DNA of 36,482 nucleotides from an uncultured Candidatus Bathyarchaeia archaeon (GTDB lineage: Archaea; Thermoproteota; Bathyarchaeia; Bathyarchaeales; Bathycorpusculaceae), in the NCBI GenBank assembly GCA_964354015.1, contig CAYGYB010000001.1, positions 1 to 36,482 of the forward strand, written 5' to 3'. How positions within the stretch are numbered: the first letter of the stretch is position 1; the number at the start of each line of letters is the position of its first letter. The notes under the pieces were generated by a model, which was not told the DNA's origin, did not search any database, and saw nothing but the letters and a program-made list of their open reading frames with translations. The position numbers were made by a program, and so were the translations under genes. Positions 9,296 through 27,326 of the stretch are shown piece after piece.

Positions 9296-9502
9296 TTTGA
9301 CAGTACACTCCTCTTATTGAAAAAGAGATATTGTGGAAATAAGCTTTATGCCCTTTCTAAAAAAAAAGAGCTCTTCTGGATTGCCACACGATTGTTACAA
9401 TAGTTTGTTACATTTTCCCATAAAAAGCCCTACATCCTCGTTTAGCGCGCTAATACTCATTTCACCCAATTTTCTATAGGACAGTAGTTGCTGCAAAGGC
9501 AA

Positions 9503-9532
9503 CGCGGGCGGGGAGGGATTTGAACCCCGGCG
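9503..9532 (-). other. tRNA 3' remnant (T arm plus acceptor 3' strand) with no matching 5' half
   Basis: The minus strand reads CCGGGG-TTCAAAT-CCCTC-CCCGCCC-G, a canonical T loop plus a GC-rich acceptor 3' strand. The upstream sequence cannot form anticodon or D arms. Confidence 0.5.
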
Positions 9533-9537
9533 GCAGT

Positions 9538-9577
9538 GGAGATGTCACCCGCAAATCCTTTTTTTCTTTTTAGCTCG
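9538..9577 (+). repeat. copy 1 of a three-copy ~40-nt intergenic motif
   Basis: GGAGATGTCACCCGCAAATCCTTTTTTTCTTTTTAGCTCG. The 16-nt core GGAGATGTCACCCGCA is identical in all three copies and each is followed by a T-run. Confidence 0.75.
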
Positions 9578-9615
9578 TTAGCTGAGTGGCTATTTAGGAA
9601 CACTTTTAATACAAA

Positions 9616-11688
9616 ATGCCGCACTCTTCATTTGGTGTGCCTGTGAAGAAGAGATTTCCACTGTTTTTGTTTTTGTTAGCCTTAGCTATTTGCGGATTTT
9701 ATTTTGGTGGGAGTTTGCTTTTTGGCATCGCCGATGCGGAGACGAATGTCGTGGGCATATTGACTTCTGACACGACTTGGACCAAAGCGAACAGCCCATA
9801 TATCCTAACAGGACCAGTGGCTGTAAACACTGGAGTTACTCTAGCAATTGAACCTGGGGTATCGGTTAACCTGAACAACTTTTACATTCAGGTAAACGGC
9901 ACGTTAATCGCAAATGGCACCAGCAATGACCAAATCACTTTCAAATGGGGACAACTCATATTCACATCTGTCAGTAACGGTTGGAACGAGACAACAGGCT
10001 CAGGCTGCATAATCGAAAACGCAGTCCTCTATTACACTGACCTATCCAGCAGCAATCCCCTAAAAATAAGCAACAGCACCAGCCACAAACCAATTACTGC
10101 TGGCAACTCGTCCGTAATTTCCTTCAACAATATTACTGGAGGCGAAGGTATCTGGGTCATTGCGGGAGAAGCAAGTGTAATTGCAAACAACATGATAGAA
10201 GGTTCTATTGAATGCTCGGGGCATTCAGTCACAGTTACTAACAACACCGTTATAGGTCCATATGGTGAGAATGATGTCGCAATCCGCGAAGTCCGTGTGG
10301 GTGATGGAAGTGTAATTTCAAACAACAACATGACTGGTTTTTTATATTTTGGAAGCTCAACCGTTTCCCACAATATTCTCAAGGGTTTAGTCGATATCTC
10401 GAGCTTAGTCGATGTCTCGGGCTCCACATTCTCCTATAACACTGTTAATGGCACTATAAGTTTACGAGGCGACGCCACGATAGTACACAACACTATTTAT
10501 GGCTTAATCGAAATTAAAGCATATATCCAGAATATTTTGCCCATAGTTTCATACAATATAATTAACGGAAGAGGAAGCACAAACGCGATTTTTATGGAAA
10601 CTGGTCGCGGGCTTTCTATTAACGCCACAATATCTGACAACAATATCTCTGAAGCTACGACAGCGATTTATGCATCTAATTCTGTCATAGCAACAATTGA
10701 GAGTAACACCATCACATCCTGTGGCAATGGCATATCACTTGCAACTTATTTTACTCCGAAGGTAGTAAACAATACTATTGCTTTTAACAACATAGGAATC
10801 AGAGTGGGAGACACATCAACGATATTAAACAATACCATTGCTTTTAACAACATAGGAATCAGGGTGGATAAATCTCCGCAGGATATCTCTTATAATAATT
10901 TTCAAAATAATTCAGGATACAACATCTACCTAGGCGTGGCAGACAACGTAGATGTTAGTAACAATTGGTGGGGAACCACCGACACGCAAGCAATAAACCA
11001 GTCAATATGGGATTTTCACTATGACTTTAATTTGGGCACGGTTAACTTTATCCCGTTTTTGACTGGCCCCAATTCTGCAGCGCCAACAATTCCCACGTTT
11101 AATCTTCTAGCGTCCGCTGGAACTGGGGGTTCCATAAATCCAAGCGGAAGCATCAGCGTACCCTACGGAGGCAACCAAACTTTTGCCATAACAGCAGACA
11201 CAGGCTATAACATAGCTGATGTTTTAGTAGATGGGAGTCCAGTTGGAGCTGTCAGCTCATACACATTTACCAATGTCCAAGATGAACACACAATCTCCGC
11301 AACATTTGCACCAATACCCACTCCAACTCCTTCGCCTTCACCAAGCCCAACGCCTACGCCTAGCCCTACTCCAACACCTACTCCTGAGCCTACGGCATCT
11401 CCATCACCTACGCCCAGCCCAACTCCTTCCCCAACCGCAACACCCACTCCAACGCCTACACCAACACCAACTCCCACACCGACGCCCCAACCAGCCTCAA
11501 CGCCCACCCCTACAGCAACGCCCACCCCCACACCGACGCCCACCCCAACTCTAACCCCAACGCCTACGCCAACTACCACACAAGAACCAGGAGTTCCAAT
11601 AAGTTATGTTTACGTAATTGTCGGGGTCTCGGTTGCCGTAATCGCTACTTTAGCTTTTCTACTGTTAAGAAAACAGAAGACAACATGA
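9616..11688 (+). CDS. surface protein with parallel beta-helix (NosD/PbH1-like) repeats, Pro/Thr/Ser linker and C-terminal TM anchor
   Basis: It has an N-terminal signal/TM and many NNxI/SxNxI beta-helix repeat units (e.g. [13 protein letters not shown] twice). The motif NNWWGTTD is typical of NosD-like domains. A PT/PS linker of about 90 aa precedes the anchor [24 protein letters not shown]. Confidence 0.75.
10768..10868 (+). repeat. tandem duplication with 60-bp period inside the beta-helix gene
   Basis: AACAATACTATTGCTTTTAACAACATAGGAATCAGAGTGGG (10768-10808) recurs at 10828-10868 with 2 mismatches. Confidence 0.85.
11312..11580 (+). repeat. low-complexity CCNACN/CCNTCN repeat encoding the (PT/PS)n linker
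   Basis: The run reads [26 protein letters not shown]...[16 protein letters not shown]. It also creates spurious ORFs in other frames and on the other strand. Confidence 0.85.
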
Positions 11689-11704
11689 AAACTCGCAGTC
11701 AGGC

Positions 11705-11745
11705 GGAGATGTCACCCGCAAACCCTCCTTTTTTCTTTAAGCTGG
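11705..11745 (+). repeat. copy 2 of the three-copy intergenic motif
   Basis: GGAGATGTCACCCGCAAACCCTCCTTTTTTCTTTAAGCTGG. It begins 17 nt after the stop of the 9616-11688 gene. Confidence 0.75.
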
Positions 11746-11778
11746 CTTGTGCATGAGCCTAATGTCGGTTACCCTACG

Positions 11779-12162
11779 TTATCTGTTAAATGTTGGCTGG
11801 AGTATTCCAATTGCAAAGCTTTCGAAGAATCCCCTTGCTCTTGGGTCTGTAATTTTCAAACATCTTACCAAGTAGCCGTCAATTCTCTGAGGGTAGGTGG
11901 GGAACCGTTTCACGATGACGTTTAGGTCAGAGCTAGCATCCATATGCTTGTGGTCGTAAAGCCGACCAACAACGTGTTTTCTAATAGTTTTTCCCACATA
12001 AACTACCTCTCCGTCACCTGGAGTGCTGATAGCGTAGACTCCTTCAACCTCAAACCTTGAAGGCTTTGTAGCAAGTATGTTGCTCAAAGGAATTGGCTCA
12101 CTTGCTAACATGTCAGTTAGCATTCCATGTAACTCAGATATTCTTACGTTGTATTGTTCCAA
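11779..12162 (-). CDS. GIY-YIG domain nuclease (small, stand-alone)
   Basis: GVYAISTPGDGEVVYVGKT fits GIY-x10-YIG. Downstream are R (VGRLYDH), a conserved Glu and Asn (FFESFAIGILQPTFNR). Confidence 0.6.
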   Translation of the reverse strand: MEQYNVRISELHGMLTDMLASEPIPLSNILATKPSRFEVEGVYAISTPGDGEVVYVGKTIRKHVVGRLYDHKHMDASSDLNVIVKRFPTYPQRIDGYLVRCLKITDPRARGFFESFAIGILQPTFNR

Positions 12163-12232
12163 TTAATGACCCCATGATACTATTTTGCTTTTCATTAATA
12201 GATTTTTAACGCGCCCTCTACTCTAAAAAAGT

Positions 12233-12266
12233 GGAGATGTCACCCGCACAATCTCCCCTTTTTTAT
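12233..12266 (+). repeat. copy 3 of the three-copy intergenic motif
   Basis: GGAGATGTCACCCGCACAATCTCCCCTTTTTTAT. In this copy GGAGAT/ATCTCC can form a 6-bp hairpin. It lies between the polB-like stop and the GIY-YIG start. Confidence 0.75.
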
Positions 12267-12284
12267 TATTGTTTCCAGAGAAAA

Positions 12285-14582
12285 TCAATATTCGGTGAGA
12301 CTCTTGTGAACATATCTTCTAACTGAGTCATAGATTGATTTGGTCGTGTATCCAGCAAAACTCAGGAGGTTTGCCGCGGAAGCGTACAGTAAAAACAGGT
12401 ATTTCTTTGTGTCGGCGTTTACGCCTTTTTCTATTAATAGTTCTGCCTTGACTCTTCGTTCGTACCGCTTATTTTCAGAATTTGTGAATAGGAATCTGAT
12501 GTTTTTGCCCGCGTGGACTTCTGCCCCTTCTTTAATTAACTGTTCAGCGGCAATGACTTGGCTGACGTGTTGCTTGTATCGTTTCGGATTTTTTGAGAGG
12601 TGTTTTGTGATTATAAGATCCCAAATGGGTACTTCGCCATCTAGTAGCTTGCGTCTGTATTCCTTCATGATTCCCAAAGCTTCAGGTATTTTTTCGTGCA
12701 ATTCGGTGGAGTTGTTTGCAGAGGCTAATTTCTTTATCATTTCTGTTTGGGCCTCAAATACGAAGCGGGGTGTGTCCCTTCGTCGGATTTCTAGACCTCG
12801 GACTTTGATTTTGCCGTTTTCCATTACGCCGTAGTAACGGTTCAAGACACCGATTCTCGGATGTATTTTGGAGGGTAAAAACACGATCCACTTGTAGCGG
12901 CCTTCAAAGTTTATGGGTACTCCAACTTGTTTGCTTATTGTTTCACACAAAGCGTTGTACTCTTCGACTGTAGCACCTTGCTTTTTTAGCCACAGCGAGT
13001 CAACGATGCCGTGAACCACCTCGAAACCATGCTTTTCCGCTGTGTGCGCTGCTTTCAAGAGTGCTTCTCTTCCGAAGGCGCATACTCCCATGTGACCGTC
13101 AACTGTGCCGAACTTGGCGTTTCTGTAGCCTAAGTAGCCGAAGCAAGTGACTAGAATCCATTTTAAGGCGATTTGGCGCTTGTCATAGATGTTTCTAAGT
13201 TGCTGGTTTTCAGCTTCGTTTTTCATGCGCTTGTAGAATAGGCGTTTGTCAACTACTAATCTGAGGGTTTTGGGTACTATGCCCGTTCGTTTTGTGCAGA
13301 TGTGATAGTTGAGCTCTGGAATGCGCAGGGGTGAGTCTGCGCAGCATTTGCAGAGGACAGTTTCCGCTGAAATGTTGTTGTTAGCCATCAGTATGGGATA
13401 CATAGAGGAAAAGTCTACTTCGCCAACATGGTCATGTGCGCCTACTCGCGGTTCAAAGATGAATCCTCCGCGGTCGCCTACAAGCAGCTCGTATGCGGTT
13501 TTGAAGGCTTCAGGTATGCTCTTGTTTCTCGGGATTAGCACATCGTCTTTTATGGCTTGATAGAACTGGAGCGAGGACATGCTTGAGCCTATGGATGACC
13601 GTGCAGCCGTGTGCAAAGGTACTCTGCATGTGCGGGCTATCTCGATTAAACCGTCGAATCCTGCTTCAGACAGGATAAACGTGTTGTTTTGGTCAACATG
13701 GATTCTCCCGTAAAGTCGGATGGCGCCAGCTCTGTAGAATGTGCGCCCGTACGAGAAGAATGTTCTGCCTGTAGGCGTTTTCGGAGCAAATGGAATATTG
13801 TCTCTGCTGAGGATTAGTTCGTCAAGAACATTGTTCAGGGTTGCTCTTTGAATAAGATAAGGGAAAAGGTATGAGTCGCCGCCTTGGGTTATAATGATGT
13901 CAGGGTCAAGCTCTTTGACGGCTTTGACGAGTTGGAGTAGTTTATCTGTTTCATCACCAGAATCACTGCATATTTCCTTCTGGTCTTGAGTTGCGTTAAT
14001 TGTGCTTATGGGATCTTTGAAGTTGGCGATTTTTCCTTTTTTGGCGATTTCCACTTTAAGCGTCATAACCTGCAGTTTTGGAATCGCGTAGTCTGTGCTG
14101 GCTACTGAGTCAAGAAGCGTGTAGTTTAGCCCTGTCTCTTCGGTCTTGATTTCTACCAGCGCGAGTGGAAATATGTCGTGGCTGAAGAAGTAGACGCGGT
14201 CTCCGTTTAAGTCGCAGTTGTGGACTTCATAGCGCAAGTAATCACCCATTTTCAAGATGCTGCGAGTGAGCGACCGCGTTTTTCTGCAATCCTTCAGCAT
14301 AAGCTCTAAAACTCTGGATTTCTCAGTGTCTGTTGGCTGCGCGTACTTGTAGGCAAAGCTCCAAGAAGCTATTGCTTGGTTCTTGTATAGTCGGCTGACT
14401 AAGCGTTCCAGTTCGTCTTGTTTGGCTGAAACGTAGATTTTGGGTTGGAACTTGTCTGTGAGTTTGATGCGTTCGCCTGTTTCGCTGATTATCCAGACGG
14501 CTATTTCGCCTTCGCCTGCGGGGTAAGCGTCAAGTATCCAGCCTTTAACATGGTCAGGTGCTGCCTGTGTGTTTGTTTGCAT
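12285..14582 (-). CDS. family B DNA polymerase, PolB2-like divergent paralog (exonuclease motifs lost, altered motif C)
   Basis: Pol motif A is present (EVDFSSMYPILM). Motif B is degenerate (KWILVTCFGYLGY versus K-x3-NS-x-YG). Motif C is VVHGIVDSLW instead of Y-G-DTDS. Exo I is TLKVEI instead of FDIET. Exo II is GGDSYLFPYLIQR, with N and FD lost. Confidence 0.8.
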   Translation of the reverse strand: MQTNTQAAPDHVKGWILDAYPAGEGEIAVWIISETGERIKLTDKFQPKIYVSAKQDELERLVSRLYKNQAIASWSFAYKYAQPTDTEKSRVLELMLKDCRKTRSLTRSILKMGDYLRYEVHNCDLNGDRVYFFSHDIFPLALVEIKTEETGLNYTLLDSVASTDYAIPKLQVMTLKVEIAKKGKIANFKDPISTINATQDQKEICSDSGDETDKLLQLVKAVKELDPDIIITQGGDSYLFPYLIQRATLNNVLDELILSRDNIPFAPKTPTGRTFFSYGRTFYRAGAIRLYGRIHVDQNNTFILSEAGFDGLIEIARTCRVPLHTAARSSIGSSMSSLQFYQAIKDDVLIPRNKSIPEAFKTAYELLVGDRGGFIFEPRVGAHDHVGEVDFSSMYPILMANNNISAETVLCKCCADSPLRIPELNYHICTKRTGIVPKTLRLVVDKRLFYKRMKNEAENQQLRNIYDKRQIALKWILVTCFGYLGYRNAKFGTVDGHMGVCAFGREALLKAAHTAEKHGFEVVHGIVDSLWLKKQGATVEEYNALCETISKQVGVPINFEGRYKWIVFLPSKIHPRIGVLNRYYGVMENGKIKVRGLEIRRRDTPRFVFEAQTEMIKKLASANNSTELHEKIPEALGIMKEYRRKLLDGEVPIWDLIITKHLSKNPKRYKQHVSQVIAAEQLIKEGAEVHAGKNIRFLFTNSENKRYERRVKAELLIEKGVNADTKKYLFLLYASAANLLSFAGYTTKSIYDSVRRYVHKSLTEY

Positions 14583-14820
14583 CTAATTCCTTCTGTAGCT
14601 TCTGGAGGCGTATCTGCTGTGAGAGTAGCATGGACATTATCATGGGTTCGAAGAGTATGGGTTGAACAGCATTGCTTCCTGCTGACGCGTAGCTTCGGCA
14701 AGCATCCATCAGCGTTTCGAAGGCTTCTTTGTCTTCGCTGCGTAAGGCTTTGGCGAATCCGTTCCATCTTCGGATTTCGTCTTCTAATGCCATGCGGTAG
14801 GTTTCAACGGTTTTGCCCAT
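14554..14820 (-). CDS. hypothetical 88-aa protein, translationally coupled between the RadA-like and PolB-like genes
   Basis: The ATG lies 4 nt after the upstream stop and the 3' end overlaps the polB-like start by 29 nt. It is predicted helical and I recognise no family. Confidence 0.45.
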   Translation of the reverse strand: MGKTVETYRMALEDEIRRWNGFAKALRSEDKEAFETLMDACRSYASAGSNAVQPILFEPMIMSMLLSQQIRLQKLQKELDANKHTGST

Positions 14821-14824
14821 CTGG

Positions 14825-15544
14825 CTACGTCTCCATGAATGCTGTTAACGGAAGAGTTTCAGAAGGCAATTCAGCAGAGCCCAATGTGAAGATAGGGTGC
14901 TTTTCTAAAATTATTTCTCGCTCGTATTTTGTTTGTTTCAGGGCTATGACTACGTTTGCTCTTCCTGAGGTTAATGCTTGAAGGTAGAGGTTGCGTTGGT
15001 TGTCTGTGTGTGGCGGGTAAGTGGCGACTACTATGACTTGGTGTTCTCGGGCGAAGTTTGATAGGCGAGTGGTGATTTGGCTGTAAATGCGCTTGGCTTC
15101 TTCGTCTTCAACGTCTTTGTCTAGGAACATGGCGGCTATGTCTGAGACTATTACGAGTTTCGCGTTGTATGTTTTGACGGCGTCTTCGAGTTTCTGCAAT
15201 ATCAACGAAGCCATTTGGTAGGCTGTGAATGCTCTGGAAATGTAAATGCGGTCTAGCGCTTGTTTTGGGTCTAGTTGGTGAAGTCGGGCTAAGCGTGTTA
15301 TTTGGTATAGTCTGAAAGTGTTTGCTCCGTCGATGAAGACTACGTTGCTTCCTAAGCCGCCGAGTTGAGGTGGTAACTGTGCTCTTATACAGAGTAGTGA
15401 TGAGAGGGATAGGACGGCGTGTGAGCCGTAGATTAGGGCGAAGTCGCCTGTCGCGAAGCCTGGAAAGAGCTGGTTTATGTTTCGCATGTTTGATGAGAGC
15501 AGAGTTTGAGAGGGAATAGGCTTAACTAACGTGTTTTGAGACAA
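14825..15544 (-). CDS. RadA/RadB (RecA-fold) paralog lacking the Walker A lysine
   Basis: The layout matches RadB: LFPGFATGDFALIYG then SHAVLSLSSLL where G-x-G-K-T is expected. This is followed by VVFIDGANTFR, DRIYISRAF and the Walker-B-like strand KLVIVSDI. Confidence 0.6.
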   Translation of the reverse strand: MSQNTLVKPIPSQTLLSSNMRNINQLFPGFATGDFALIYGSHAVLSLSSLLCIRAQLPPQLGGLGSNVVFIDGANTFRLYQITRLARLHQLDPKQALDRIYISRAFTAYQMASLILQKLEDAVKTYNAKLVIVSDIAAMFLDKDVEDEEAKRIYSQITTRLSNFAREHQVIVVATYPPHTDNQRNLYLQALTSGRANVVIALKQTKYEREIILEKHPIFTLGSAELPSETLPLTAFMET

Positions 15545-15660
15545 TTTCTCCCACTTCTCCCAATTTATTGAGGGATTAATAGAGTGCCGTTTTAGCTGTT
15601 TTAAAGCTGTTTCTGGAACGACTTTCCAGCGCAGGTGGGAGAGTACAGTAAAAGTGAAGT

Positions 15661-15765
15661 GTTGGGATTAAATTTTAATCCAACCAACCAACCAACCCAA
15701 CGACTGATACTGGGAAAAGACAGGACAGAGCAGGACAGTATACAGGATTCAGGGCATACAGGCTA
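15661..15765. repeat. intergenic repeat cluster: perfect palindrome, (CAAC)n microsatellite and reiterated CAGGACAG motifs
   Basis: GGATTAAA-T-TTTAATCC lies at 15665-15681 and CCAACCAACCAACCAACCCAAC at 15680-15701. The stretch GACAGGACAGAGCAGGACAGTATACAGGATTCAGGGCATACAGG lies at 15720-15763. Confidence 0.7.
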
Positions 15766-15855
15766 TGAATGAAGATGAGAAGACAGGGTAGTAGTAAAAA
15801 TCAAGTCATGCCTATTGATGGTGGTTTGAATCATGAATTGGGTGTCCTCAGTAGC

Positions 15856-16479
15856 TCAAGGGATAGCTGTTCCCATCGCAATAGTCTTTAGCTGAGCCAC
15901 AGCTTTCTTGAGTAAATCCACATCAACTGTTGGCGTTCTATTAACATATTGTCCGTCCATTGTAAAATCTGAGTAAAAAACCGCTTGTCTTGTCTCGCAA
16001 TCTGCAATCTCATCTGTATCAAATGCCTGCGGGTCAAAGGCAGACCTATCGAATGCGCCTTCATGGAGAGTAATGCATTCTTTTGGAAGTGTCTGTATTG
16101 CTTTTTCAAACTTAGCAGTATGGCTTCGGAAGCCGTTTTTGTATTGTATCCTGACCATTCCAGATGTAGGAGTACAGTCTTTTAACAACAGAAGCTTTCC
16201 ATATTCCTCTACAGCGAACATGTAAAGTCCCGAACAAATTGAAGCATCCCCACCATTATTCAGAAGTTTCTCCACTGAATCTATCAGGGCATTTACTCCG
16301 TTAAGTGTCTCCTGCATCATTGTTCTCCATAAGGCTTCGCTGATTTCTAACTCTTCTTTCCATTTACCTCTTGCATCCTTAAGCATTCTTAAACCCTCAC
16401 ACTTTGTACTCACAATCGGGGTAATACCCACAGCTTCTGCACTTCCGAACATTGTTATGCTGGTCTGGCTCAATGACAC
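15856..16479 (-). CDS. AbiV-like (abortive infection family) protein, tentative
   Basis: NALIDSVEKLLNNGGDASICSGLYMFAVEEYGKLLLL, then RSHTAKF and RQAVFYSDF, resemble the AbiV pattern of helix-EE-x-GK, H-x-x-K and R-x-x-x-Y-x-D. This call is from memory of the family only. Confidence 0.4.
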   Translation of the reverse strand: MSLSQTSITMFGSAEAVGITPIVSTKCEGLRMLKDARGKWKEELEISEALWRTMMQETLNGVNALIDSVEKLLNNGGDASICSGLYMFAVEEYGKLLLLKDCTPTSGMVRIQYKNGFRSHTAKFEKAIQTLPKECITLHEGAFDRSAFDPQAFDTDEIADCETRQAVFYSDFTMDGQYVNRTPTVDVDLLKKAVAQLKTIAMGTAIP

Positions 16480-16548
16480 CCAAACTAATCAATGCGAACT
16501 TGCTTAACTTGTCATTGCGACTGCGGCTTTTCTAAAAAGCACGGTATT

Positions 16549-18081
16549 TCATTCTGGCTCGAATATAGACTTGCCCTGTTTGTTTAGCTTTTTCAAACGG
16601 TCATCCATGTTTTTTAGTGCGTTGGAGTCTGGAAGCCCGTAGTCTTCTTTTTCTCTCTCGGCTAAATATTGTGGGTAGTGAATGACTTTTATTGGCACGG
16701 CAAATCGTATTTTGGGTTCTGATATGAGCAAGGCTTCACCTATGTCCAGCATCTTTATTTCTGTATCGCTGTATTCCATGTAAGGCGTATTGTCTGTCAA
16801 GTATTTTCTGTCGTTTTTCAGTTCTGTTTTCATTATTACTTTTGTCCACAATTCGGCGAAAACATCAAAGTCGATTCTGGAGGGTCGAGGAGTAACAGCA
16901 TTTAATCCGACTCGATATTTACGGTATGTCAAAGCTATGTCCGAGAAGATAGTTCGAGGTTTGGCTGGGTCAAGAAACTCATGCGCTTCTTCCAACGTTA
17001 TCAGCAGGGTCGGAAGCTTCTGCCATTCTTCATACTTCTCTTCCCACATGTGCTTGTATTTCTCAGCAACGGTGGAAGCTATCATACATACGATTCGTTT
17101 TTGGTCCTCATCGCGAAGTCCCGATATGTCAATTAAGCATGTTATTCCTTCACATATGTTCTGTGAGATATTATCGATAACACTGTAGTCAGATGGGGGA
17201 AAGAGGTCCTCTGGGAGAGAGGACAGCTTTTGCATAAGCGCTCCAACTGCTTCTTTATGTCCTTTTGTTTCGAATTTTCCTCCTGCTTCAAAAGTTTTCA
17301 GAGCCTCCTCTATCCACCTATTTCCATGTGCTTTGTAGAGAGACCGTGCAAGTCGCCTTTGTGGAAGGGATACATCAGAGAAAAGAGTTGCAAGCTTTTC
17401 AGGTTTGATTGTGTACAAACCAACCATTAGCTTCTTGTCTCTTGCAGAATAGTACCTAACCTTTGTGTGGAATAAGGGATGGTCTTTCAAACCGCATTGA
17501 GGTTTGATTTCTTTTCCTTCAAAAAGCTGACCTGCAAAATCAAATATTAACGCAACCGTCTTCGGGCTGTTGTCAATTAATTGAGCGTTCAAAATCAGTT
17601 CTGTATTTGTCTTTCCAGACCCTGTCATCCCAAACATGCCCATCATGCGGGGAAGAGAGTCAATGTCTATCCCCACTAAACCTAACAGTTGCTTTCCAGA
17701 ACGCATCAGCCCAAGATTCATATCGCCTGCAAGTTTGAGAATCGAATGGTCTTCTTCGCCAGTTGCAAAGACTTGGTCATTGTAATTCGGGTTGAATGTC
17801 GGTGATCGTACTCGATTATCTGTCCTCTCCAAAAACAGTACTGCTTCAACGCTCCTGAAACAGGAGTATGGACCAAAGACCTCCTTACCTTCTGCCTGTC
17901 TTAGTTGTTCAGTAGTTTGCAGTGTTGAACTGCTTTCTGCATTGACAACTCTTGCATAAAAGATGCTTTCAACAGAGTCAATACGGACAATTTGCCCAAA
18001 AGAAATTCGGGCTGTTTTGTCCAAAAAGAATTTTACAGTGTCGCTCTTTGTTCCACAAACAAATCCAATAGATTTAGACAT
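16549..18081 (-). CDS. HerA-like (DUF87 / FtsK-HerA superfamily) ATPase
   Basis: It has an N-terminal HAS-barrel-like segment (IGFVCGTKSDTVKFFL...FGQIVRID...FYARVV). Walker A is GMFGMTGSGKTN and Walker B is LLITLEEAHEFL. At about 510 aa it matches archaeal HerA in size. Confidence 0.8.
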   Translation of the reverse strand: MSKSIGFVCGTKSDTVKFFLDKTARISFGQIVRIDSVESIFYARVVNAESSSTLQTTEQLRQAEGKEVFGPYSCFRSVEAVLFLERTDNRVRSPTFNPNYNDQVFATGEEDHSILKLAGDMNLGLMRSGKQLLGLVGIDIDSLPRMMGMFGMTGSGKTNTELILNAQLIDNSPKTVALIFDFAGQLFEGKEIKPQCGLKDHPLFHTKVRYYSARDKKLMVGLYTIKPEKLATLFSDVSLPQRRLARSLYKAHGNRWIEEALKTFEAGGKFETKGHKEAVGALMQKLSSLPEDLFPPSDYSVIDNISQNICEGITCLIDISGLRDEDQKRIVCMIASTVAEKYKHMWEEKYEEWQKLPTLLITLEEAHEFLDPAKPRTIFSDIALTYRKYRVGLNAVTPRPSRIDFDVFAELWTKVIMKTELKNDRKYLTDNTPYMEYSDTEIKMLDIGEALLISEPKIRFAVPIKVIHYPQYLAEREKEDYGLPDSNALKNMDDRLKKLNKQGKSIFEPE

Positions 18082-19108
18082 AATCTCCTATTCCTTCTCT
18101 TCTAAACGCATATTGAACTCCATGAAGTTCATCCGCAAAACTACAAGATTGCTCCTCCAAACGCAGCATTTTCGATAACCCTGCCTCTCTCAGTCTGTCC
18201 TCAACAATGTCGTAATAATGAAGAAGTGCAGTGTCTGAAGGACCCGAGAACTCATGCGCAAGGTATAGAGGAACTGGGTATCCCAAACAACGAGCATCTC
18301 CTGAAACCGCAGTCAATGGCGACAGAATTTCCGCTACGTTTCGACCTTTCAAATACTCCATTACGTCACATCGAAACACGCGTTGACTTCCTTCGAATAA
18401 TTTGACTAACGATATGTCCCCAAAGAGATGTTTCCCCCTATCAGCAGTTCTAACGGGATGATAAGTCCAGATGTCGTAAGGCGAAAGCAAACTTGCGTTT
18501 GCTATAAAGTCTCTGCCTTTTTCATCGTGAAGAAGCGGCGAGTTCTTGCTCAATGCCAAGAGGACTATCCCCATTTTCTCGCACTTTTCATACAAGGATA
18601 GTCTAAAATTTCTTCTACCACCAAAATAACCTGCGCCGTCAAGCAACACGTAGTTGGTTGCATTTTCTTCTTCATTACAGTTGGTGTCTCCTGATTTTAG
18701 AAGTTTCAAAGCGAGCTCGCTTTCCAGTTCGATTCTGTAATCTGTAAGGAAATTGCCTCGCGTTTTTGTGTCTCCAACTGCTGTGAACAGCCTCTCCTCA
18801 TAGTTCCATTCCACCTCTCGTTCTTTAACAAAGACATGGGCTGTCCGCATAAGGTAGACACCCCAGTTGTTTGCTCTTTTGAGCGTCCTTGTCGAGCAAT
18901 CAACAGCGACAAAGGTTCCGCAAAAGTTGTCGATTCTTTTCAAGGGTCTGATATGCGAGGCTTCAGGCTTAATGGATATTATATGCTCTTCCAAGAAATC
19001 ATTCGAATCGTAGGCAATTCCATTTTGTGTATAGTATTTAAGCTTCTTTTCCATATCAGCAAGACCATTATCGGCAATTGAGTTCATCATTGAAGGCGCC
19101 TTTCTCAT
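18074..19108 (-). CDS. NurA-like nuclease (RNase H-fold 5'-3' exo/endonuclease family)
   Basis: FVAVDCST corresponds to the NurA AVDGS motif, YVLLDGAGYFGG to the second Asp motif, and LGYPVPLYLAHEFSG to the YP-x-x-L-x-x-AH motif. Its 3' end overlaps the herA-like start by 8 nt. Confidence 0.6.
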   Translation of the reverse strand: MRKAPSMMNSIADNGLADMEKKLKYYTQNGIAYDSNDFLEEHIISIKPEASHIRPLKRIDNFCGTFVAVDCSTRTLKRANNWGVYLMRTAHVFVKEREVEWNYEERLFTAVGDTKTRGNFLTDYRIELESELALKLLKSGDTNCNEEENATNYVLLDGAGYFGGRRNFRLSLYEKCEKMGIVLLALSKNSPLLHDEKGRDFIANASLLSPYDIWTYHPVRTADRGKHLFGDISLVKLFEGSQRVFRCDVMEYLKGRNVAEILSPLTAVSGDARCLGYPVPLYLAHEFSGPSDTALLHYYDIVEDRLREAGLSKMLRLEEQSCSFADELHGVQYAFRREGIGDYV

Positions 19109-19223
19109 TAATTATGGGACTGAATTCTATTAAGATATGCGCCATTGCAAATATAAGACAACTGTGGCAACGACTTCTCCAATCTGTGGAGAGGTGAGTT
19201 AAAATAACAAGCGCGCGCTTTGA

Positions 19224-20636
19224 TCAAATTTTAGTTGGAATATCTTCCATAAGTCTTGGTTCGACTTTTTCTTTTACAGCAAGATGTAATAAATCGGTGA
19301 TCTCGTTTTTTTGTTTTCTCATCTGATTTATCTCAGCCATAGCTTGATCTACGATTTGAAGCTGGTCTTCCTTTTTTTCGGGTGGCTTGGGGATCTTCAA
19401 GTTGCGAACTTTGGCAAGACCAAGCTTTTGTTGTCTTAGTTCACTCATTTCTTTTTGAATCTGAATTTGCACAATTGACGAATTAAGCAAGCAAAACAGA
19501 TATTTCGGCTCCACTGAATCCTTAGGAGAAAGTACAGCTAAATTCTCTGTTAAGTTGCTGGTTCCAAGCCCTTCAGGAATAATTGCCACTTTGCCCACGG
19601 TTCCAGCTATAGCCATGACAATCTCGTTTTCAAAGACTTGATATCTCTCGATCGAAGCGTGTTGTTTTTCAGAGATATATCTGATGGCTCTTGTATTGAC
19701 TTCTCCATCTACAATGTCTGTATTCCGCAAATATTTGTATTTAGTGACCCCAGACGAATATCCGCTACCCTTCTTCAAGCGCCTCCCTCCGCGCACGGTA
19801 GCCAAAGAAGACAAAGAGACCCATTCAGGAATAGCATCTTGCATTTCCTTTATTTTTGTCGTTAACATGTTTTGTCTAAAACCAACTCTCATCAATCGGT
19901 TAGAACCTATTTGACTAAACGAAGTTTGGAAGCGGCTAACAACACCTCTTGGAACGGTTAATCCAAATACTCTGAAGAAGGTGTCATCGCATATTTGGGA
20001 AATTGGACGAATTGATTTGGTGATGGTCGTAATCCTTCCGTCAATCTCTAATAAATCAGCGGTAATGTTTTCCTGAGTTTCGATTGATGGAATTGGAAGC
20101 TTTAGCTGTAACAATTCTTCTATTGGCAAACGCGCTTGTATTTTTCCAGATTTCAGCAATCCTAAAGAAGTCAGAACCTTCGGATTAAGCAGGAGATATT
20201 TAAAGAATGGGGCAGTTACTTTTTCGCTATTAAGTTTTAGTGGAATCCATTCTGTTGAACCTATCCATAACTTTTCCTTTCTGTTGATCAGTATTTTTCC
20301 CAGTTCTGGCTCAATCTTGGCGATGAGAATGTCGGCGTCTGCAAAATCCAATTTGTTTGACCCTACTTCTATCACGGTTTTTTCGGATAGAAGCGCCGAT
20401 GTCTTCGACTTGACGTCTTCAAGCTCTATGAGAACACGTGCCGTATCAAGAGTTCCCTTTTTTATTATTGTTTTTTTCAGGGAGAAAATAAGGTCGATCA
20501 CTCTTGTTGGCTTCAGAGTGCTGTTAAGAAAAATGACAGAGTCCAATTCATCTACAAAATATCTGTATCTGGCACCAAGCCTACGGCTCGACCTAAGACC
20601 CAGATTGGAAAAGGATGTGACAAACGAGAATACCAA
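19224..20636 (-). CDS. restriction-modification specificity subunit (HsdS/BcgIB-like, two target-recognition domains)
   Basis: Two TRD-like halves are each followed by the conserved helical spacer (LPIPSIETQENITADLLEIDGRI and KIPKPPEKKEDQLQIVDQAMAEINQM). The start lies 3 nt after the methyltransferase stop; the track start is a TTG. Confidence 0.8.
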   Translation of the reverse strand: MVFSFVTSFSNLGLRSSRRLGARYRYFVDELDSVIFLNSTLKPTRVIDLIFSLKKTIIKKGTLDTARVLIELEDVKSKTSALLSEKTVIEVGSNKLDFADADILIAKIEPELGKILINRKEKLWIGSTEWIPLKLNSEKVTAPFFKYLLLNPKVLTSLGLLKSGKIQARLPIEELLQLKLPIPSIETQENITADLLEIDGRITTITKSIRPISQICDDTFFRVFGLTVPRGVVSRFQTSFSQIGSNRLMRVGFRQNMLTTKIKEMQDAIPEWVSLSSLATVRGGRRLKKGSGYSSGVTKYKYLRNTDIVDGEVNTRAIRYISEKQHASIERYQVFENEIVMAIAGTVGKVAIIPEGLGTSNLTENLAVLSPKDSVEPKYLFCLLNSSIVQIQIQKEMSELRQQKLGLAKVRNLKIPKPPEKKEDQLQIVDQAMAEINQMRKQKNEITDLLHLAVKEKVEPRLMEDIPTKI

Positions 20637-20639
20637 AAT

Positions 20640-22967
20640 TTAACAGTCCCACGGTTTTAATGCCAAAAAACTATCAAGGATATTTGGAATCGAGTCAGTT
20701 CCATTTTTGGCGGCGCTCAGGGAAGTTGCAAAGAGCTCATTTGGTCTATGCAGTTCGCCTTGCTTTTTGCTTCGCTTGTACCCGATTTCATCTGCGTGCG
20801 CCATGAATATCTTATAATCGAGCCTTCGGCTTACTTTACTGAAAACCCACCAGTCAATATTCTTCAGAAGTTCAGATAAAATATCTTCATACGTTTCTTT
20901 AATGGCGTTGGCGTCAAGATTTGCCGCATCAGCTTCCGTCATGAATTCCGACAAAAAAGTTAAGAAGATTTTCTTGTCCGAATCATCGAGAGGCACCTGT
21001 CCAGTGAGAACAATTCTTTCAATCTCACTTCGAAGTTTGCGATACTCTTTTGTTTCTTCTCTCCAAATGCGATCATATTCTTTAACCTCCTCTCTCGTTT
21101 TCTTTCTTGCAATTAGTAGACTCGTCTTGGTAGGCGTAAAAGGCTTGAAAGCAAGGAACGGAAGAGAGATTATAGCTTTGATTTCGAAATGTCTATAGAG
21201 GAACTTTCGAATGTAGAGGTTGTCTTCAGTATCAAGCACGCTGTCAGGCAATACAACTCCTAAGCGACCGTTTTCGCGGAGTAATTGGAACCAGCGCTCT
21301 ATGAACAGATTTTCAGAATTTTGGTTATCAGCAAACATAAATCTATCATTTAGCCCCTTCTTAGTTTCGGGATCGAGTGTAACGCTGAATGGAGGATTTG
21401 AAACCACCAGATCAAACTGCTCATTTACAGGTTTATCATATATCTGAGTCTCATAGTTGCCAGATTTTGACAAAGCACTAATACGATCTTGCAACTGATA
21501 GTTTTCAAATTCGAGAAGACCGTCTTTTTGGAAGATGTTTAGGTTTCCATCCCCGTGCAAAACCATGTTAACTTTGGTTGTCAGTGCTAAATCAGGGTTT
21601 GGTTCTATTCCATAAACATACTCTCTTGCCCATATATTCTCCTTAATTGCGGGGGACCAACTCGCAATAAGCTCGCGTATTCGCTTTGATCCGCGTATTT
21701 TTGCGAAATTGTCTTCTTTAATAGTTCTCGTTACGAGTTTCATGCATTCTATTAGGAAGGTACCAGAGCCAGCTGAAGGATCGCATATGAAAGGCAAGCG
21801 GGTTTGGTCGTTAATCTCTTTCGCCACAAGATTTGGGAGACCTACAGCAAGGAGTATGAAACGCACAATGTTTGTGTGGGTAAGGAATTGACCCCTTGTT
21901 TGGGTGAATTCTTTACTTATTATGTTTTCAAAAAATTCGCCCAGTAAATCGCCTTCTTCCTTATGTTTGTTTTCAACGAGTGAAAATCCTTGAAGTCGGT
22001 CTACAACATAAGCAATTTTGTAGTCTGGAATTATGTCTTTGTCTATCCCTGTCGAGTTTTTGATAACATCAGCAGGAATCCCGAGGTATTTTCTTCGCGC
22101 GTCATTATATAGAGTATTTACCTTGTCGTATATTTCGTCAAGAGGTTGTGGAATACCATCTTTGTATTCAATCTGAAAGCGGTAAGATTCACCGTCTGCA
22201 CACTCGTTTTCGTCGTAAACTTTGGCAAAAAACAGTTTTACCAAGTTGATGAAAATTTGGTTATATGCCATTCCTCCACCGCCCCAGAGGGTTTCGTGCA
22301 GCTCTACTCTCAGGACTCGGAAGTCTTCTCTTTCAAGCGAAGTATCAAGGTCGCTTACTCCCTTAACATAAAGAGTTTTAGTTGCAATTCCGTATTCGAC
22401 AGGAAGGCGATTCAGGCTTGGAGATCCGTTTTTTTCCCAATTTTCAAAGTCCTTAAAACGTTCATTGTCGATAAGGAGTGTTTTGTCTTGAATCCTGCCA
22501 TTAGATAATTCTGAGGTGCAATAAACTAAATATTTTACTGGCGCTTCCTGCTTTGCCATATCAAATAGCTGTCCCTTAATCATTGAACGGTGCTCTTCAA
22601 ATTTCTCGGGTGGCTTAATTTCAACAAAAAGATAGGTTGAAGCAATGTTTGGTTTCCTTTTGTCTCTAACTATTAAATCAATTCTGCCTTTTGCCTCTTT
22701 AGGTCTCCCTATGCAGTACTCTTTTTCCATTTCTATCGATGAAACAGGATACTTCAGCTCCTTAACTAAACGGACTGTGAGGTAAGCGCGAACATATTCC
22801 TCATCTATTAACGATGATATTGCCCTGTGAAGAACAATCTTCGAAGAATTATACTCTATTTTACCTCCTTGAAAATCACTGTTAGGAACAAGTTTGGAAA
22901 CTATCTCTCCTGAAGGGTCATTGTCCTGAATGTACTTGACAATTGCCTTCTTCAAATTAATGTTCAT
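20640..22967 (-). CDS. fused PD-(D/E)xK endonuclease / gamma-class N6-adenine DNA methyltransferase (Type IIB BcgIA-like or Type IIG-like)
   Basis: The N-terminal HSDR_N-like nuclease motif is GRIDLIV...YLFVEIKPP (D...E-x-K). Methyltransferase motif I is FICDPSAGSGTFLIE and motif IV is VVSNPPFSV. Confidence 0.85.
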   Translation of the reverse strand: MNINLKKAIVKYIQDNDPSGEIVSKLVPNSDFQGGKIEYNSSKIVLHRAISSLIDEEYVRAYLTVRLVKELKYPVSSIEMEKEYCIGRPKEAKGRIDLIVRDKRKPNIASTYLFVEIKPPEKFEEHRSMIKGQLFDMAKQEAPVKYLVYCTSELSNGRIQDKTLLIDNERFKDFENWEKNGSPSLNRLPVEYGIATKTLYVKGVSDLDTSLEREDFRVLRVELHETLWGGGGMAYNQIFINLVKLFFAKVYDENECADGESYRFQIEYKDGIPQPLDEIYDKVNTLYNDARRKYLGIPADVIKNSTGIDKDIIPDYKIAYVVDRLQGFSLVENKHKEEGDLLGEFFENIISKEFTQTRGQFLTHTNIVRFILLAVGLPNLVAKEINDQTRLPFICDPSAGSGTFLIECMKLVTRTIKEDNFAKIRGSKRIRELIASWSPAIKENIWAREYVYGIEPNPDLALTTKVNMVLHGDGNLNIFQKDGLLEFENYQLQDRISALSKSGNYETQIYDKPVNEQFDLVVSNPPFSVTLDPETKKGLNDRFMFADNQNSENLFIERWFQLLRENGRLGVVLPDSVLDTEDNLYIRKFLYRHFEIKAIISLPFLAFKPFTPTKTSLLIARKKTREEVKEYDRIWREETKEYRKLRSEIERIVLTGQVPLDDSDKKIFLTFLSEFMTEADAANLDANAIKETYEDILSELLKNIDWWVFSKVSRRLDYKIFMAHADEIGYKRSKKQGELHRPNELFATSLSAAKNGTDSIPNILDSFLALKPWDC

Positions 22968-23457
22968 GCCTAATTCTCACGTCCGAGATTCACGCTCTAT
23001 CGTCAAAGAGTTCAATTGAATATGGCATCTGACGTTAATATTACTTTTCCAAATAGTGGGTGTTCATTTCAATGAAATTCATGTGAACCCCAAATCGACC
23101 GAAGACTTGACCGAAGGTTATCAATGGACTTAAGAAGCGAGTTTGCCATTATTTGCACATTGGCTATTCGGTATTTGAAAAGAATAGCCAAAGCCACTGC
23201 TCTTCAACTTTCTTTGGTGGACGTTGTGAGTGTTCTTAGAAACTGGAAAAGAAAGGAATTTTTGATAGAGTAAGATCCGTAAATTCATCACCAAAAGGTG
23301 AGTCCATCCTCTTAAGAAAGGAAGAAAGTTAAATATTGGTCACAAAATCTCTCGCATAACTGTTTGCTTCCTTTTCCTCCACCCTAACAAGAAGGTCTAA
23401 ACTGTTAGAATCAACCAAATGGTGATATAATTCATGGAGTATTATGCGTTTGGTTAA

Positions 23458-23658
23458 CCCTCTCTTAGTAAAGTAAGCCCGCTAACCGGATTCTTAGCGT
23501 TTACGTTGATGCTGAACGAAAGCCTTGAAGACACAGAGAACCTGCCAGCCCCTGAAGTCTTAGCTGCAGAAATCGCAGAAAACCTGCAATCAGCACTCGA
23601 GCAGTTCAATAGCATGCGCGAAGAGTTGGACGAAGACAAGAGCCAAGAGCGCGCGTGA
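23458..23658 (+). pseudogene. relic of the C-terminus of a type I R-M HsdM subunit
   Basis: The open frame ends ...ESLEDTENLPAPEVLAAEIAENLQSALEQFNSMREELDED*. It closely resembles the C-terminal tail of EcoKI-type HsdM (SLPEPDVLAAEAMGELVQAL...). No methyltransferase domain lies upstream. A 15-codon stub follows where hsdS would start. Confidence 0.45.
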
Positions 23659-24368
23659 GCTTATCATGATGAAAGAGCCTTTAGTGAGTAATTCGCAGCG
23701 CCGCGATGATTAAGCGTCTCCAACTCTGACTAAAATGCGCGTTACCACGCACGCAGAAGCTTGCTTGCGCGTAAATAGATCTGCGCGAACAGCGTCAACA
23801 GAGCTTAATTCAAGTTGTGTGCAGATAGACCTGCACACAAAGCACAACAGCACAAGGGGCTTAGCTGTGAACAAACCACGTTACTACGTACATACGCTTC
23901 TTGAAGCGCTGCACAAGGGAACTTTGCTACTTTATGCACTCAAAGAATCAGCGTCCTTTTTTGAATCAGAGCATTCGTTATGAGACTTGTGGGTCACTGG
24001 TTTGGAGCTTTAGTCGTTCTCTAAGTTAAGTGCGGTGATTAGTGCTATCGCGTGGCGAGCAAGTCTTGCAAACTTTGCTCCCAGAATATGCGGGTAGGGT
24101 TGCACAGGGAAGCGAGGGAACATGGTGCTTAGTGCTTCCTTTGCTCATCGCGTTCAGAGCTTGTTTCACGTTTTGTCTGAGAGGTTCCTATTTCTGTCTC
24201 TTTCGTAAATGTACTTAAATTACAAACTGAATCTACTTGTTCTGGAAGTATAAGATTTATAGACCTCTCAGACAAATTGCGTTTTAAGCTCTGATTACTG
24301 TTCCCTTTGTTTTTGCGCCGATTGGTTAGCAAGAGCATTAAACGCGTTACGCGCTTTGCAAAAAAAAA

Positions 24369-25583
24369 TTAGTCACGCTTTACGATGGCGCGTCCGTCTT
24401 GCAGCGTATGAATAAGCGTCCAGCCCTCGTTAAGATAGTTCAATAGTTCGTTCTCTGCAATCTGCTTGAATTCTTCTCCGCAGTGTCTTCCGTTAGTGCA
24501 TTCAGGATTTACATGTTTTTTATCTCTAAGCAACATCCATCGCCGTCTAAGTTGTTGCTGCTCAGCTTCCAACTGTGCCAAGCGTTCGGACACCTCTTTC
24601 GGCACTTGCTTCTTATCAGCCGTAAACTCTAAAAGCGGCACGGCTTCGGCAAACTTTGCGCGTAACTGATCAATAGCGGGTTGGCTGTACGGTGCTTCCT
24701 CGCCCTTAACTTTGCGTCCTCTGATTTTGCGCGCCCAGTTTGGAACCATACCAATCTCCTCAAGCGCCGTGTTCACGTAGCGCCTCGCATCATGCAAGCT
24801 AAACTGCACGCCTGCTCCCTTACTTAAACGCCAGATTAGCTTGCCATACTCCTCGTAAGCCAGCGGTTTAAAAGGCGCGCGGGTTTCAAGCCACACGTTA
24901 TCCTCAGCAGTTAAAGTTCGCCCAAGTTTCTGCTCAATCCACTCTTTGTAAAGTTTTAAGTCTCTAACTGCTTCCGGCGTTAAGAAAGTTATCTGCTGAA
25001 CGCCCTTGTAGCGTCCGCGTCCGTGCCCTTTCAAAATCTCTGACGGAAGGTTTATGCACGGTAAATCCGCTTGTTCCCAATCGTCTTGAATGTGCTTCCA
25101 TTTAAGTTGCGACAGCGTTTCCTTGGCGATAGCGGTTGAGTTGACGAAAGTGATAAGCGCTTTATCTCGCAAGTTCGACGACCAACTCCACAGTTTACGT
25201 AGGTTTTGCTTAGAGGGCTTATTGTACGGCTTAACTTTCTCAAGTTGAACAACTCCGCACGCTCTGGCTAAGTCGCAGTAGTTATGCTTAAAAAAACTCT
25301 TAACTGCTGTTGTAACGCGGAACTTAACGGAATTCTTGAAGCCTGCTTTGTTCTCAGCAACAAAATCGTCTAATAGCGCCTCAGCTTCTTTGCTTGCTGG
25401 GTTACTTTTAAGCGCCAGCAGCTCCGTTGGTGACTTTCCGCTCCACTGGCAGAAGCGGTAAAGGTCAAAAGCGTTTAGCTGCTTCTCCTGAATGCGCGTA
25501 AGCCAGCGCTTAACCTCATCGTAGCGTTCAGCCCACGCTTCAAGCACGTTATTCTTTTTAATCTCGCTCATTTTAGCTTTCAC
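24369..25583 (-). CDS. tyrosine recombinase / integrase
   Basis: The catalytic-domain pattern is ...ETRAP..., FSLHDARRYVNT (H-x-x-R), NWARKIRGRK, then APYSQP as a candidate nucleophile Tyr. The N-terminal SAM-like domain fits. It lies at the edge of the accessory segment. Confidence 0.75.
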   Translation of the reverse strand: MKAKMSEIKKNNVLEAWAERYDEVKRWLTRIQEKQLNAFDLYRFCQWSGKSPTELLALKSNPASKEAEALLDDFVAENKAGFKNSVKFRVTTAVKSFFKHNYCDLARACGVVQLEKVKPYNKPSKQNLRKLWSWSSNLRDKALITFVNSTAIAKETLSQLKWKHIQDDWEQADLPCINLPSEILKGHGRGRYKGVQQITFLTPEAVRDLKLYKEWIEQKLGRTLTAEDNVWLETRAPFKPLAYEEYGKLIWRLSKGAGVQFSLHDARRYVNTALEEIGMVPNWARKIRGRKVKGEEAPYSQPAIDQLRAKFAEAVPLLEFTADKKQVPKEVSERLAQLEAEQQQLRRRWMLLRDKKHVNPECTNGRHCGEEFKQIAENELLNYLNEGWTLIHTLQDGRAIVKRD

Positions 25584-25777
25584 CTCCGTATTCTTTTACC
25601 ATGTAACAAAAGGCTCTGCCCTTTATAAATATCTCCTTGTAGGACTACAGTTACATATAACCCTTCTCTTGTGCAGCATTAATACCTGTGAACTTACCGA
25701 GATTCTTGCTTATTTGCCATTTCCAAATATTACATAGATTACACTTTAGTCTATATGGCGCCTATCGTTTCCCAGAA

Positions 25778-26695: not shown

Positions 26696-26718
26696 GGTCT
26701 TTCACGCTAAAGCCTGCG

Positions 26719-27192: not shown

Positions 27193-27326
27193 TTCCCTAT
27201 TGGCTTCTTTGAGAAACCTCTACATCTAAGCTAATTTCGCCTCTAAAAGCTATTTCGCATCAGCAAGCACGGTGGAGAATTGTGAAGAAGGCGCTGATGC
27301 TTTCGGAAAGAACGCTCTTCTGCGTG

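Follow-up and report, generated by a model that had tools for sequence, protein, structure and literature searches.

Do five neighbouring genes that point the same way form one composite defence system, or several systems that happen to be neighbours? The question is raised by a contig of an uncultured Candidatus Bathyarchaeia archaeon (CAYGYB010000001.1, positions 1 to 36,482 of the forward strand; this whole stretch of 36,482 nt is called the window below), which carries genes for an AbiV-like protein, HerA, NurA, a specificity (S) subunit and a fused nuclease-methyltransferase (RM). The original prediction, made from the sequence alone, had proposed that recognition and self-marking by the methyltransferase and S subunit are coupled to HerA-NurA degradation, which would replace a missing HsdR, and had named simple clustering of independent modules in a defence island as the alternative. 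The five open reading frames (ORFs) lie where they had been predicted:

15856..16479, minus strand: AbiV-like HEPN gene (longest ORF; probable start 16386 or 16452)
16549..18081, minus strand: herA, hexameric FtsK/HerA-type ATPase (8-nt overlap with nurA)
18074..19090, minus strand: nurA, probable RNase-H-fold nuclease (longest ORF reaches 19108)
19224..20636, minus strand: S subunit with two target-recognition domains (Methylase_S in two stretches)
20640..22967, minus strand: RM subunit, BsaXI-family Type IIB (775 aa; N-terminal PD-(D/E)xK nuclease followed by a gamma-class N6-adenine methyltransferase)

Our analysis makes it very probable that the five genes are three autonomous units, namely RM-S, nurA-herA and the AbiV-like gene, lying side by side as cargo of one mosaic, integrase-bounded island of 17.5 kb. 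This agrees with the alternative of independent modules clustered in an island, and refines it to an integrase-bounded insertion between cofD and phoU_div.

The predicted layout is borne out for the longest ORFs, with gaps of 3 nt between RM and S, 115 nt between S and nurA and 69 nt between herA and the AbiV-like gene in addition to the 8-nt overlap. Two starts modify it. Homologue lengths of 337-338 aa and a conserved ribosome-binding-like AGAAAGG place the start of nurA at the ATG at 19090, which widens the gap to S to 133 nt, and the AbiV start is uncertain (16479, 16452 or 16386), hence a herA-AbiV gap of 69-162 nt. The co-orientation of the five genes is uninformative because they sit within a series of 13 successive minus-strand genes (11779-29302), among them those for SerRS, ribosomal protein S3Ae, MoaE and CofD. 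Domain searches directly confirmed four of the predicted identities (AbiV-like, HerA, S and nuclease-methyltransferase); the NurA call stands by way of its relatives, as described below.

The RM subunit is a near-full-length homologue of the RM subunit of BsaXI. A phmmer search against PDB matched query residues 31-750 to residues 23-775 of chain 8w0p_A (E = 3.7e-163), and a domain search of the 775-aa protein returned HSDR_N_2 and N6_Mtase/Eco57I (PF02384, E = 4.5e-26). Cryo-EM and mutagenesis of BsaXI have identified E73, D90, E105 and K107 as essential, family-conserved PD-(D/E)xK residues (PMC11997821), and RM residues E81, D97, E116 and K118 are identical to them in the alignment. Methyltransferase motif I (DPSAGSGTF from residue 396) and motif IV (SNPPFS from 523, with NPPF at 524-527) are intact as well. 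The likeness to BsaXI (RM.BsaXI and S.BsaXI; PDB 8w0p/8w2p/8w2q; PMC11997821) thus extends from the two-gene layout, with S starting 3 nt after RM, through the nuclease, connector, methyltransferase and knob regions to the catalytic E/D/E/K, motif I and NPPF, and to an S subunit with two target-recognition domains. The two enzymes differ in size (775 versus 916 aa): the window protein has no C-terminal paddle, the alignment stopping at BsaXI residue 775, before the paddle (E811-E823). In the BsaXI family the paddle occurs only in a long subgroup (>850 aa), homologues of <800 aa forming a knob-only subgroup (PMC11997821), and on length and alignment the window protein is assigned to the latter. 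The host also differs in being an archaeon; members of the RM family were found in Bacillus, Spirochaetes and Nanoarchaeota, and in some homologues RM and S are fused into one chain of about 1020 aa. Against PDB, the window's S subunit gave only a marginal match to a Type I S subunit and no detectable similarity to any S.BsaXI chain, and a different recognition sequence is therefore expected.

These assignments weaken the premise of a HerA-NurA pair that replaces HsdR. It is true that no HsdR-type protein is found among the window ORFs scanned, and the hsdM equivalog scores 28 bits against a cut-off of 243. As an argument the absence is irrelevant, however, because RM brings its own intact PD-(D/E)xK nuclease: RM and S read as a complete, self-sufficient Type IIB restriction-modification enzyme of the BsaXI type that should need no motor, so that the lack of HsdR is expected and there is nothing to replace. 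By analogy with BsaXI, the two proteins would form an (RM)2S complex in which S reads a bipartite site, the NPPF methyltransferase would mark self DNA, and the N-terminal nuclease domain would cut unmodified DNA on both sides of the site, excising a short fragment with no translocase involved.

A dedicated coupling of M/S with HerA-NurA should be visible as conserved linkage, and the co-occurrence check that the original prediction had suggested finds none, whether the survey is centred on RM, on NurA or on AbiV. The RM-centred sample comprises seven loci in five contexts, with RM homologues at 78, 69, 52 and 51% identity. An S gene follows RM in all six loci that extend past RM (in the seventh, the contig breaks off immediately behind RM), and the two subunits diverge in step (identities of 62/78, 55/69 and 31/52% for S/RM); HerA, NurA and AbiV occur in none of the seven. 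The NurA-centred sample comprises 137 loci, taken from 80 species-representative Bathyarchaeia genomes (NurA present in 80/80, HerA in 78/80), JGI metagenomes (46 loci) and exact-protein look-ups (11 loci). Homologues of RM, S, AbiV and the integrase are absent from the NurA loci of all 80 genomes, also when searched with an RM profile hidden Markov model (positive control, 1127 bits), and RM, S or AbiV homologues are likewise missing from the 46 metagenome and 11 further loci (0/137 in total). Neither HerA nor NurA occurs in any of seven AbiV loci.

Two of the RM loci also bear on the movement of the restriction genes. Positions 1-4531 of L012 and 2576-7106 of L013 share an identical RM (78% to the window's) and an S gene at 99% nucleotide identity, while their downstream flanks are wholly different, one adjoining a DndB-like gene, which suggests recent mobility of the RM-S pair.

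The nurA-herA pair shows features of the archaeal HerA-NurA systems. HerA carries a DUF87 domain (PF01935, E = 3.3e-12), a Walker A motif (GMTGSGKT at residue 151) and a Walker B motif; its best PDB match is Sulfolobus solfataricus HerA (4d2i, E = 3e-17), and it matches the repair-type model NF040937 at E = 7e-20, below the equivalog cut-off. NurA is more diverged. Alone, the window protein scores 15.5 bits against PF09376 (cut-off 21), and neither single-sequence nor profile searches gave a match in PDB. PF09376 is matched by 18 of 24 NurA relatives, however (best 7.9e-8), one relative is named NurA by NCBI, and the top ten Foldseek hits are all NurA-family structures, with the caveat of a weak query model (AlphaFold pLDDT 55) and TM scores of about 0.2. 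The invariant residues D70, E127/E129 and D157 fit, by spacing and not by structural alignment, the catalytic residues D58, E116 and D133 of Sulfolobus solfataricus NurA (PMC3326311). Within the clade of close relatives, dN/dS, the ratio of non-synonymous to synonymous substitution rates, is 0.09-0.12 for nurA and 0.05-0.08 for herA; such purifying selection indicates that both genes are functional.

The pair is also delimited as a unit. The close relatives at 74-88% were sampled as ten loci, which represent nine lineages including the window, and the only genes that they share are nurA and herA. DNA homology to these relatives spans 16544/16547 to 19105/19111, reaching 19210 in L001; because the shared DNA covers nurA-herA only, the homology breakpoints fall in the two larger gaps of the array. 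The 8-nt overlap recurs in L001, L007 and L011. In the gap upstream of nurA lies a further element:

19122..19139, minus strand: AT-rich TATA-like element upstream of nurA, CATATCTTAATAGAATTC (putative own promoter)

This element aligns with ATAT(N)TTTTA(A/T)AGAAATC in L001, L005, L010 and L011, and these four lineages keep both the element and the Shine-Dalgarno-like AGAAAGG despite four different upstream genes. The A/T-rich TTATATTT to which the original prediction had pointed in the same gap is a different sequence, 10-17 nt upstream of the TATA-like element, and is not conserved. T-tracts follow the stop codons of S and herA. Taken together, the conservation of the element and the T-tracts make it plausible that nurA-herA is transcribed separately, from a promoter and towards a terminator of its own. 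A scan with sigma-70 and intrinsic-terminator models stayed at the level of shuffled sequence, such models not being meaningful for an archaeon. The two genes would accordingly form a translationally coupled pair with its own promoter. If their products work like the archaeal complexes that have been characterised, hexameric HerA would pass DNA ends to a NurA dimer that resects or degrades them.

The AbiV-like protein scores marginally above the curated cut-offs for both of its families (PF18728, 27.9 versus 27.1 bits; TIGR04498, 34 versus 27), and 27 relatives were found. Homologues at 63 and 56% identity have an unrelated N6_N4 methyltransferase, or else primase and SOD genes, as neighbours, in contexts devoid of HerA, NurA and BsaXI-like RM. 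Domain content and context together mark the gene as a stand-alone, single-gene HEPN module, whose product would act alone. Like the Lactococcus AbiV it is a single-gene module with the PF18728/TIGR04498 domain; it differs in being very distant and in having an archaeal host.

What unites the three units is the segment of DNA on which they lie. As comparator we used the metagenome-assembled genome SRBZ_1 (GCA_026014705.1), reached through a member of the window's S3Ae cluster, whose proteins are 83% (SerRS), 94% (S3Ae), 83% (MoaE), 77% (CofD) and 90% (PhoU_div) identical to those of the window. In SRBZ_1 cofD and phoU_div are adjacent (L152), whereas in the window they are 17.5 kb apart, separated by the following features:

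8137..8144: direct repeat ACATATAA (TTATATGT on the minus strand), phoU_div-side junction
8145..25652: inserted genomic island, 17,508 bp, with all five genes inside
24369..25583, minus strand: tyrosine recombinase (integrase; PF00589, E = 1.3e-5; XerA-like NCBIfam match)
25653..25660: second copy of the 8-bp repeat, cofD/integrase-side junction

The 8-mer has only two copies in the window, one per junction, and the empty site in SRBZ_1 has a single TTATATGT (L152, 13104-13111). Homology to SRBZ_1 resumes exactly at the repeat at 8137..8144, and at the other junction a 19-nt exact match to the empty site, CAAGAGAAGGGTTATATGT, ends at 25653..25660; the integrase lies 70 nt inside the cofD-side junction. 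Because of the empty site, the junction repeats and the integrase at the edge, we read the segment as an integrase-bounded insertion. G+C content differs between its modules (39-40% for RM-S, 42-43% for nurA-herA, about 47% for the PolB and RadA genes), which marks the island as a mosaic.

About 40 nt separate the target TTATATGT from the start codon of phoU_div downstream of it, and the target resembles the phoU_div TATA box; its duplication would leave phoU_div an intact copy. The junction repeat was recognised only by comparison with the empty site, a generic search for repeats as attachment sites having returned chance-like matches only. A 19-nt repeat at 12256 and 20455 was judged irrelevant as an attachment site, its second copy lying inside the S gene. 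A tRNA target was rejected too: ARAGORN found none, and the tRNA matched by Rfam (6077-6220) is outside the island. A scan of the island against PHROGs showed no viral hallmark. A casposon or pipolin was dismissed: scanning the window ORFs with Pfam and NCBIfam gave no Cas1, and the DNA polymerase B is of the archaeal RNA-primed type, its motif C being degenerate.

Is the nurA-herA pair, then, a native operon caught between newcomers, or itself a passenger? In most Bathyarchaeia the genes occupy a conserved, origin-proximal core locus, whose neighbours among the 80 genomes are:

145-aa gene, upstream of core nurA-herA: 77/80 genomes
MarR/TrmB, downstream of core nurA-herA: 75/80 genomes
cdc6, near core nurA-herA: 71/80 genomes
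PolD DP1, near core nurA-herA: 64/80 genomes

None of these (cdc6/orc1, PolD DP1, the 145-aa gene, MarR/TrmB) is present in the window. SRBZ_1 has its own cdc6-linked nurA-herA with core neighbours on another contig (L053); the identity of the window copy to this one is no more than 54% for NurA and 71% for HerA. To calibrate this divergence, syntenic and presumably orthologous nurA-herA pairs were binned by the identity of flanking housekeeping proteins:

Flanking identity 75-80%: NurA mean 72% (minimum 56%), HerA mean 82% (minimum 70%)
Flanking identity 80-85%: NurA mean 74% (minimum 61%), HerA mean 85% (minimum 79%)
Flanking identity 85-90%: NurA mean 80% (minimum 61%), HerA mean 89% (minimum 77%)

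The NurA identity between window and SRBZ_1 falls below the lowest value of all three bins; for HerA it undercuts the minima of the 80-85% and 85-90% bins and slightly exceeds that of the 75-80% bin. A neighbour-joining tree of concatenated NurA and HerA shows a monophyletic window clade, whose stem is the longest internal branch (0.106 versus a median of 0.012) and whose distances to all core copies are roughly equal (0.31-0.35). By these sequence comparisons the island pair is too diverged from the origin-linked copy of SRBZ_1 to be the vertically inherited one, and because of its island location, the divergence from SRBZ_1, the calibration and the tree we read it as an accessory or xenologous cassette. 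It would have branched off from the core, origin-linked nurA-herA of Bathyarchaeia and be spreading horizontally.

The neighbours of the other clade members are in keeping with variable placement. They include an ABC transporter, a transglutaminase-like protein, an acetyltransferase and dodecin, and are mostly not defence genes; integrases lie upstream in two lineages. In L001 (11010-11411; also L002 and L003; 83% identity) herA is cut to 133 codons right after an intact nurA, and no remainder of herA is present within 10 kb. This lineage carries an integrase, a 572-aa protein and a helix-turn-helix gene upstream, with a Cas1 gene some 5 kb downstream. At the core locus, the protein of about 145 aa immediately upstream of nurA-herA (e.g. 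L008 7506-7943; loci L019-L098) has no Pfam match and may be a third component or a regulator.

Of the explanations that compete with three autonomous cargo units, the one that survives best makes the island nurA-herA a defence or element-maintenance module that is independent of M/S recognition, either degrading invading linear DNA or restriction ends or serving recombination of the element together with the PolB2-like and RadA-like genes of the island. The integrase-bounded setting next to RM and AbiV would suit such a role, as would the accessory, non-syntenic nature of the clade with its upstream integrases and truncated herA, and HerA is known to join other effectors in bacterial defence, for example in SIR2-HerA (PMC11472057). 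Yet the clade's other neighbours are seldom defence genes, HerA is close to the repair type, with 4d2i as its best match and E values of only about 1e-4 for the antiphage HerA models, and the PolB2-like and RadA-like genes show no linkage to nurA-herA in relatives. We consider this explanation unlikely.

Still less probable, in our view, is that nurA-herA is an ordinary, vertically inherited repair operon with RM-S and AbiV inserted on either side. This was the explanation that we had favoured at first, and it lost ground once SRBZ_1 had been compared, the divergence calibrated and the tree built. It draws on a family that is single-copy and near-universal in Bathyarchaeia (80/80 loci), on a HerA about 70% identical to core copies, on the strong purifying selection and on the viral collections, in whose contigs no relatives of NurA were found. 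Against it, the pair lies inside a 17.5-kb insertion that SRBZ_1 lacks, is without every conserved core neighbour, has diverged from the SRBZ_1 copy beyond any comparably related orthologous pair, and belongs to a long-branched clade whose flanks are not conserved across its nine lineages, one of which has a truncated herA.

A single dedicated complex or operon in which M/S recognises and marks self DNA and HerA-NurA acts as the motor-nuclease in place of HsdR can hardly be right: the genes are adjacent and co-oriented, RM, S and HerA show weak, sub-threshold similarity to mad2, mad5 and mad8, and M/S is combinable with a HerA-like ATPase elsewhere (bioRxiv 10.1101/2023.03.30.534895), but RM is a BsaXI homologue with a nuclease of its own, neither the 137 NurA loci nor the seven RM loci show co-occurrence, homology breaks off between S and a nurA with its own conserved promoter-like element, G+C differs between the modules, and the scores against the MADS families are far below their cut-offs, with the other mad families unmatched among the proteins scanned. 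Any cooperation among the units would be indirect and generic, such as HerA-NurA degrading restriction ends, and would involve no dedicated complex.

Several points weigh against three autonomous units in one inserted island. The structural model of NurA is poor (pLDDT 55), and the RM-centred survey covers no more than seven loci in five contexts. Transcripts may read through from S into nurA across the 133-nt gap. The comparison that delimits the island rests on one related genome, and the interior of the island may have been assembled by several events. The housekeeping genes used for the divergence calibration differ from those shared with SRBZ_1, and a second, cdc6-linked nurA-herA copy in the window's own organism is presumed, the window being the part of its genome that was covered.

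The remaining cargo of the island comprises a 256-aa ORF, a NosD-like protein, a 127-aa ORF, the PolB2-like and RadA-like genes, which precede the AbiV-like gene, herA, nurA, S and RM, and then small ORFs and the integrase. Two of these genes depart from their families in conserved motifs:

12285..14582, minus strand: family-B DNA polymerase, PolB2-like (motif C degenerate, HGIVDS instead of YGDTDS)
14825..15544, minus strand: RadA/Rad51-like paralogue without a Walker A motif

The NosD-like beta-helix protein (690 aa, 9616-11688) is a probable surface protein among the island cargo; its C-terminus has a Thr/Pro-rich linker, encoded by a tandem 18-nt repeat (ACGCCCACCCC...) at 11500-11583. Between RM and the integrase, a stretch of 1.4 kb (22968-24368) holds only three small ORFs (61-82 aa) with no family matches, and a 32-nt inverted repeat at 24154-24185 and 24263-24294. 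Outside the island, the Rfam tRNA (6077-6220, minus strand, 144 nt, 48.6 bits), which ARAGORN missed, presumably contains an intron; over 59 nt it matches L009 699-757 at 95% identity, and a free-standing LAGLIDADG ORF (6298-6909) adjoins it.

How do the three units compare with known systems? For a modification system joined to a HerA-like protein and a nuclease, TdpAB is a possible precedent, a resemblance suggested by the PDB name TdpA; a literature search on it gave nothing usable.

The nearest known combination of M/S with other effectors, including a HerA-like ATPase profile, is MADS (mad1-8), identified in Proteobacteria, in which a Type-I-like methyltransferase (mad2) and an S subunit (mad5) are accompanied by effectors and not by HsdR (bioRxiv 10.1101/2023.03.30.534895). 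The PADLOC mad8 profile aligns weakly with the central domain of the window's HerA. The window differs in that its RM is a true BsaXI homologue with its own nuclease; the equivalog tests for mad2 and mad5 failed (NF047738, 180.9 versus 720; NF047740, 51.1 versus 400), and no other mad family was matched by PADLOC or NCBIfam among the nine proteins scanned.

Closest to nurA-herA are the archaeal HerA-NurA systems (Sulfolobus solfataricus 4d2i/2ygk, Pyrococcus furiosus 3tal, Thermococcus kodakarensis 9x1l; PMC3326311, PMC5715905, PMC12977600), with which it shares the overlapping gene pair, the Walker A and B motifs, the NurA family signal, the spacing of acidic residues and the strong purifying selection. 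It differs from them in lacking mre11-rad50 nearby, a linkage that is typical of thermophilic archaea and not strictly defining (neither the scanned window ORFs nor the annotated core loci L008 and L009 contain an Mre11 or Rad50 domain), and in its place on an island, on a long branch and among variable neighbours, away from the cdc6/PolD-linked position. SIR2-HerA and DUF4297-HerA (PMC11472057) likewise combine a HerA-family hexameric ATPase with an effector in defence islands, but the partner in the window is probably a canonical NurA, and the antiphage HerA NCBIfam models match the window's HerA at E values of about 1e-4 against 7e-20 for the repair-type HerA.

The modules are all of known kinds; if anything here is a new variant, it would be the HerA-NurA clade found on the island. 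A bolder interpretation, which we hold to be unlikely, is that this clade split from the core operon, travels horizontally as a two-gene cassette, settles in integrase-bounded islands next to restriction and Abi genes and serves degradation of invaders and not host repair. Like RecBCD in bacteria, it would complete the destruction of DNA whose ends were made by enzymes such as the adjacent Type IIB nuclease; on that interpretation it would be a previously undescribed accessory clade of archaeal HerA-NurA. A version with a dedicated physical complex of M/S and HerA-NurA is less likely still.

For the study of defence loci, the five genes are a case of adjacency that has no evolutionary support as a unit, and they warn against naming an HsdR-less HerA-NurA restriction system from one locus. 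The archaeal, paddle-less BsaXI homologue offers a comparison with the solved enzyme, bearing on how a Type IIB enzyme cuts both strands without a paddle. The locus also provides a Bathyarchaeia island of 17.5 kb that has clear-cut boundaries and whose empty site can be identified. Finally, if the island pair is read as above, HerA-NurA, usually seen as archaeal housekeeping, would also exist in Bathyarchaeia as a mobile accessory cassette under purifying selection.

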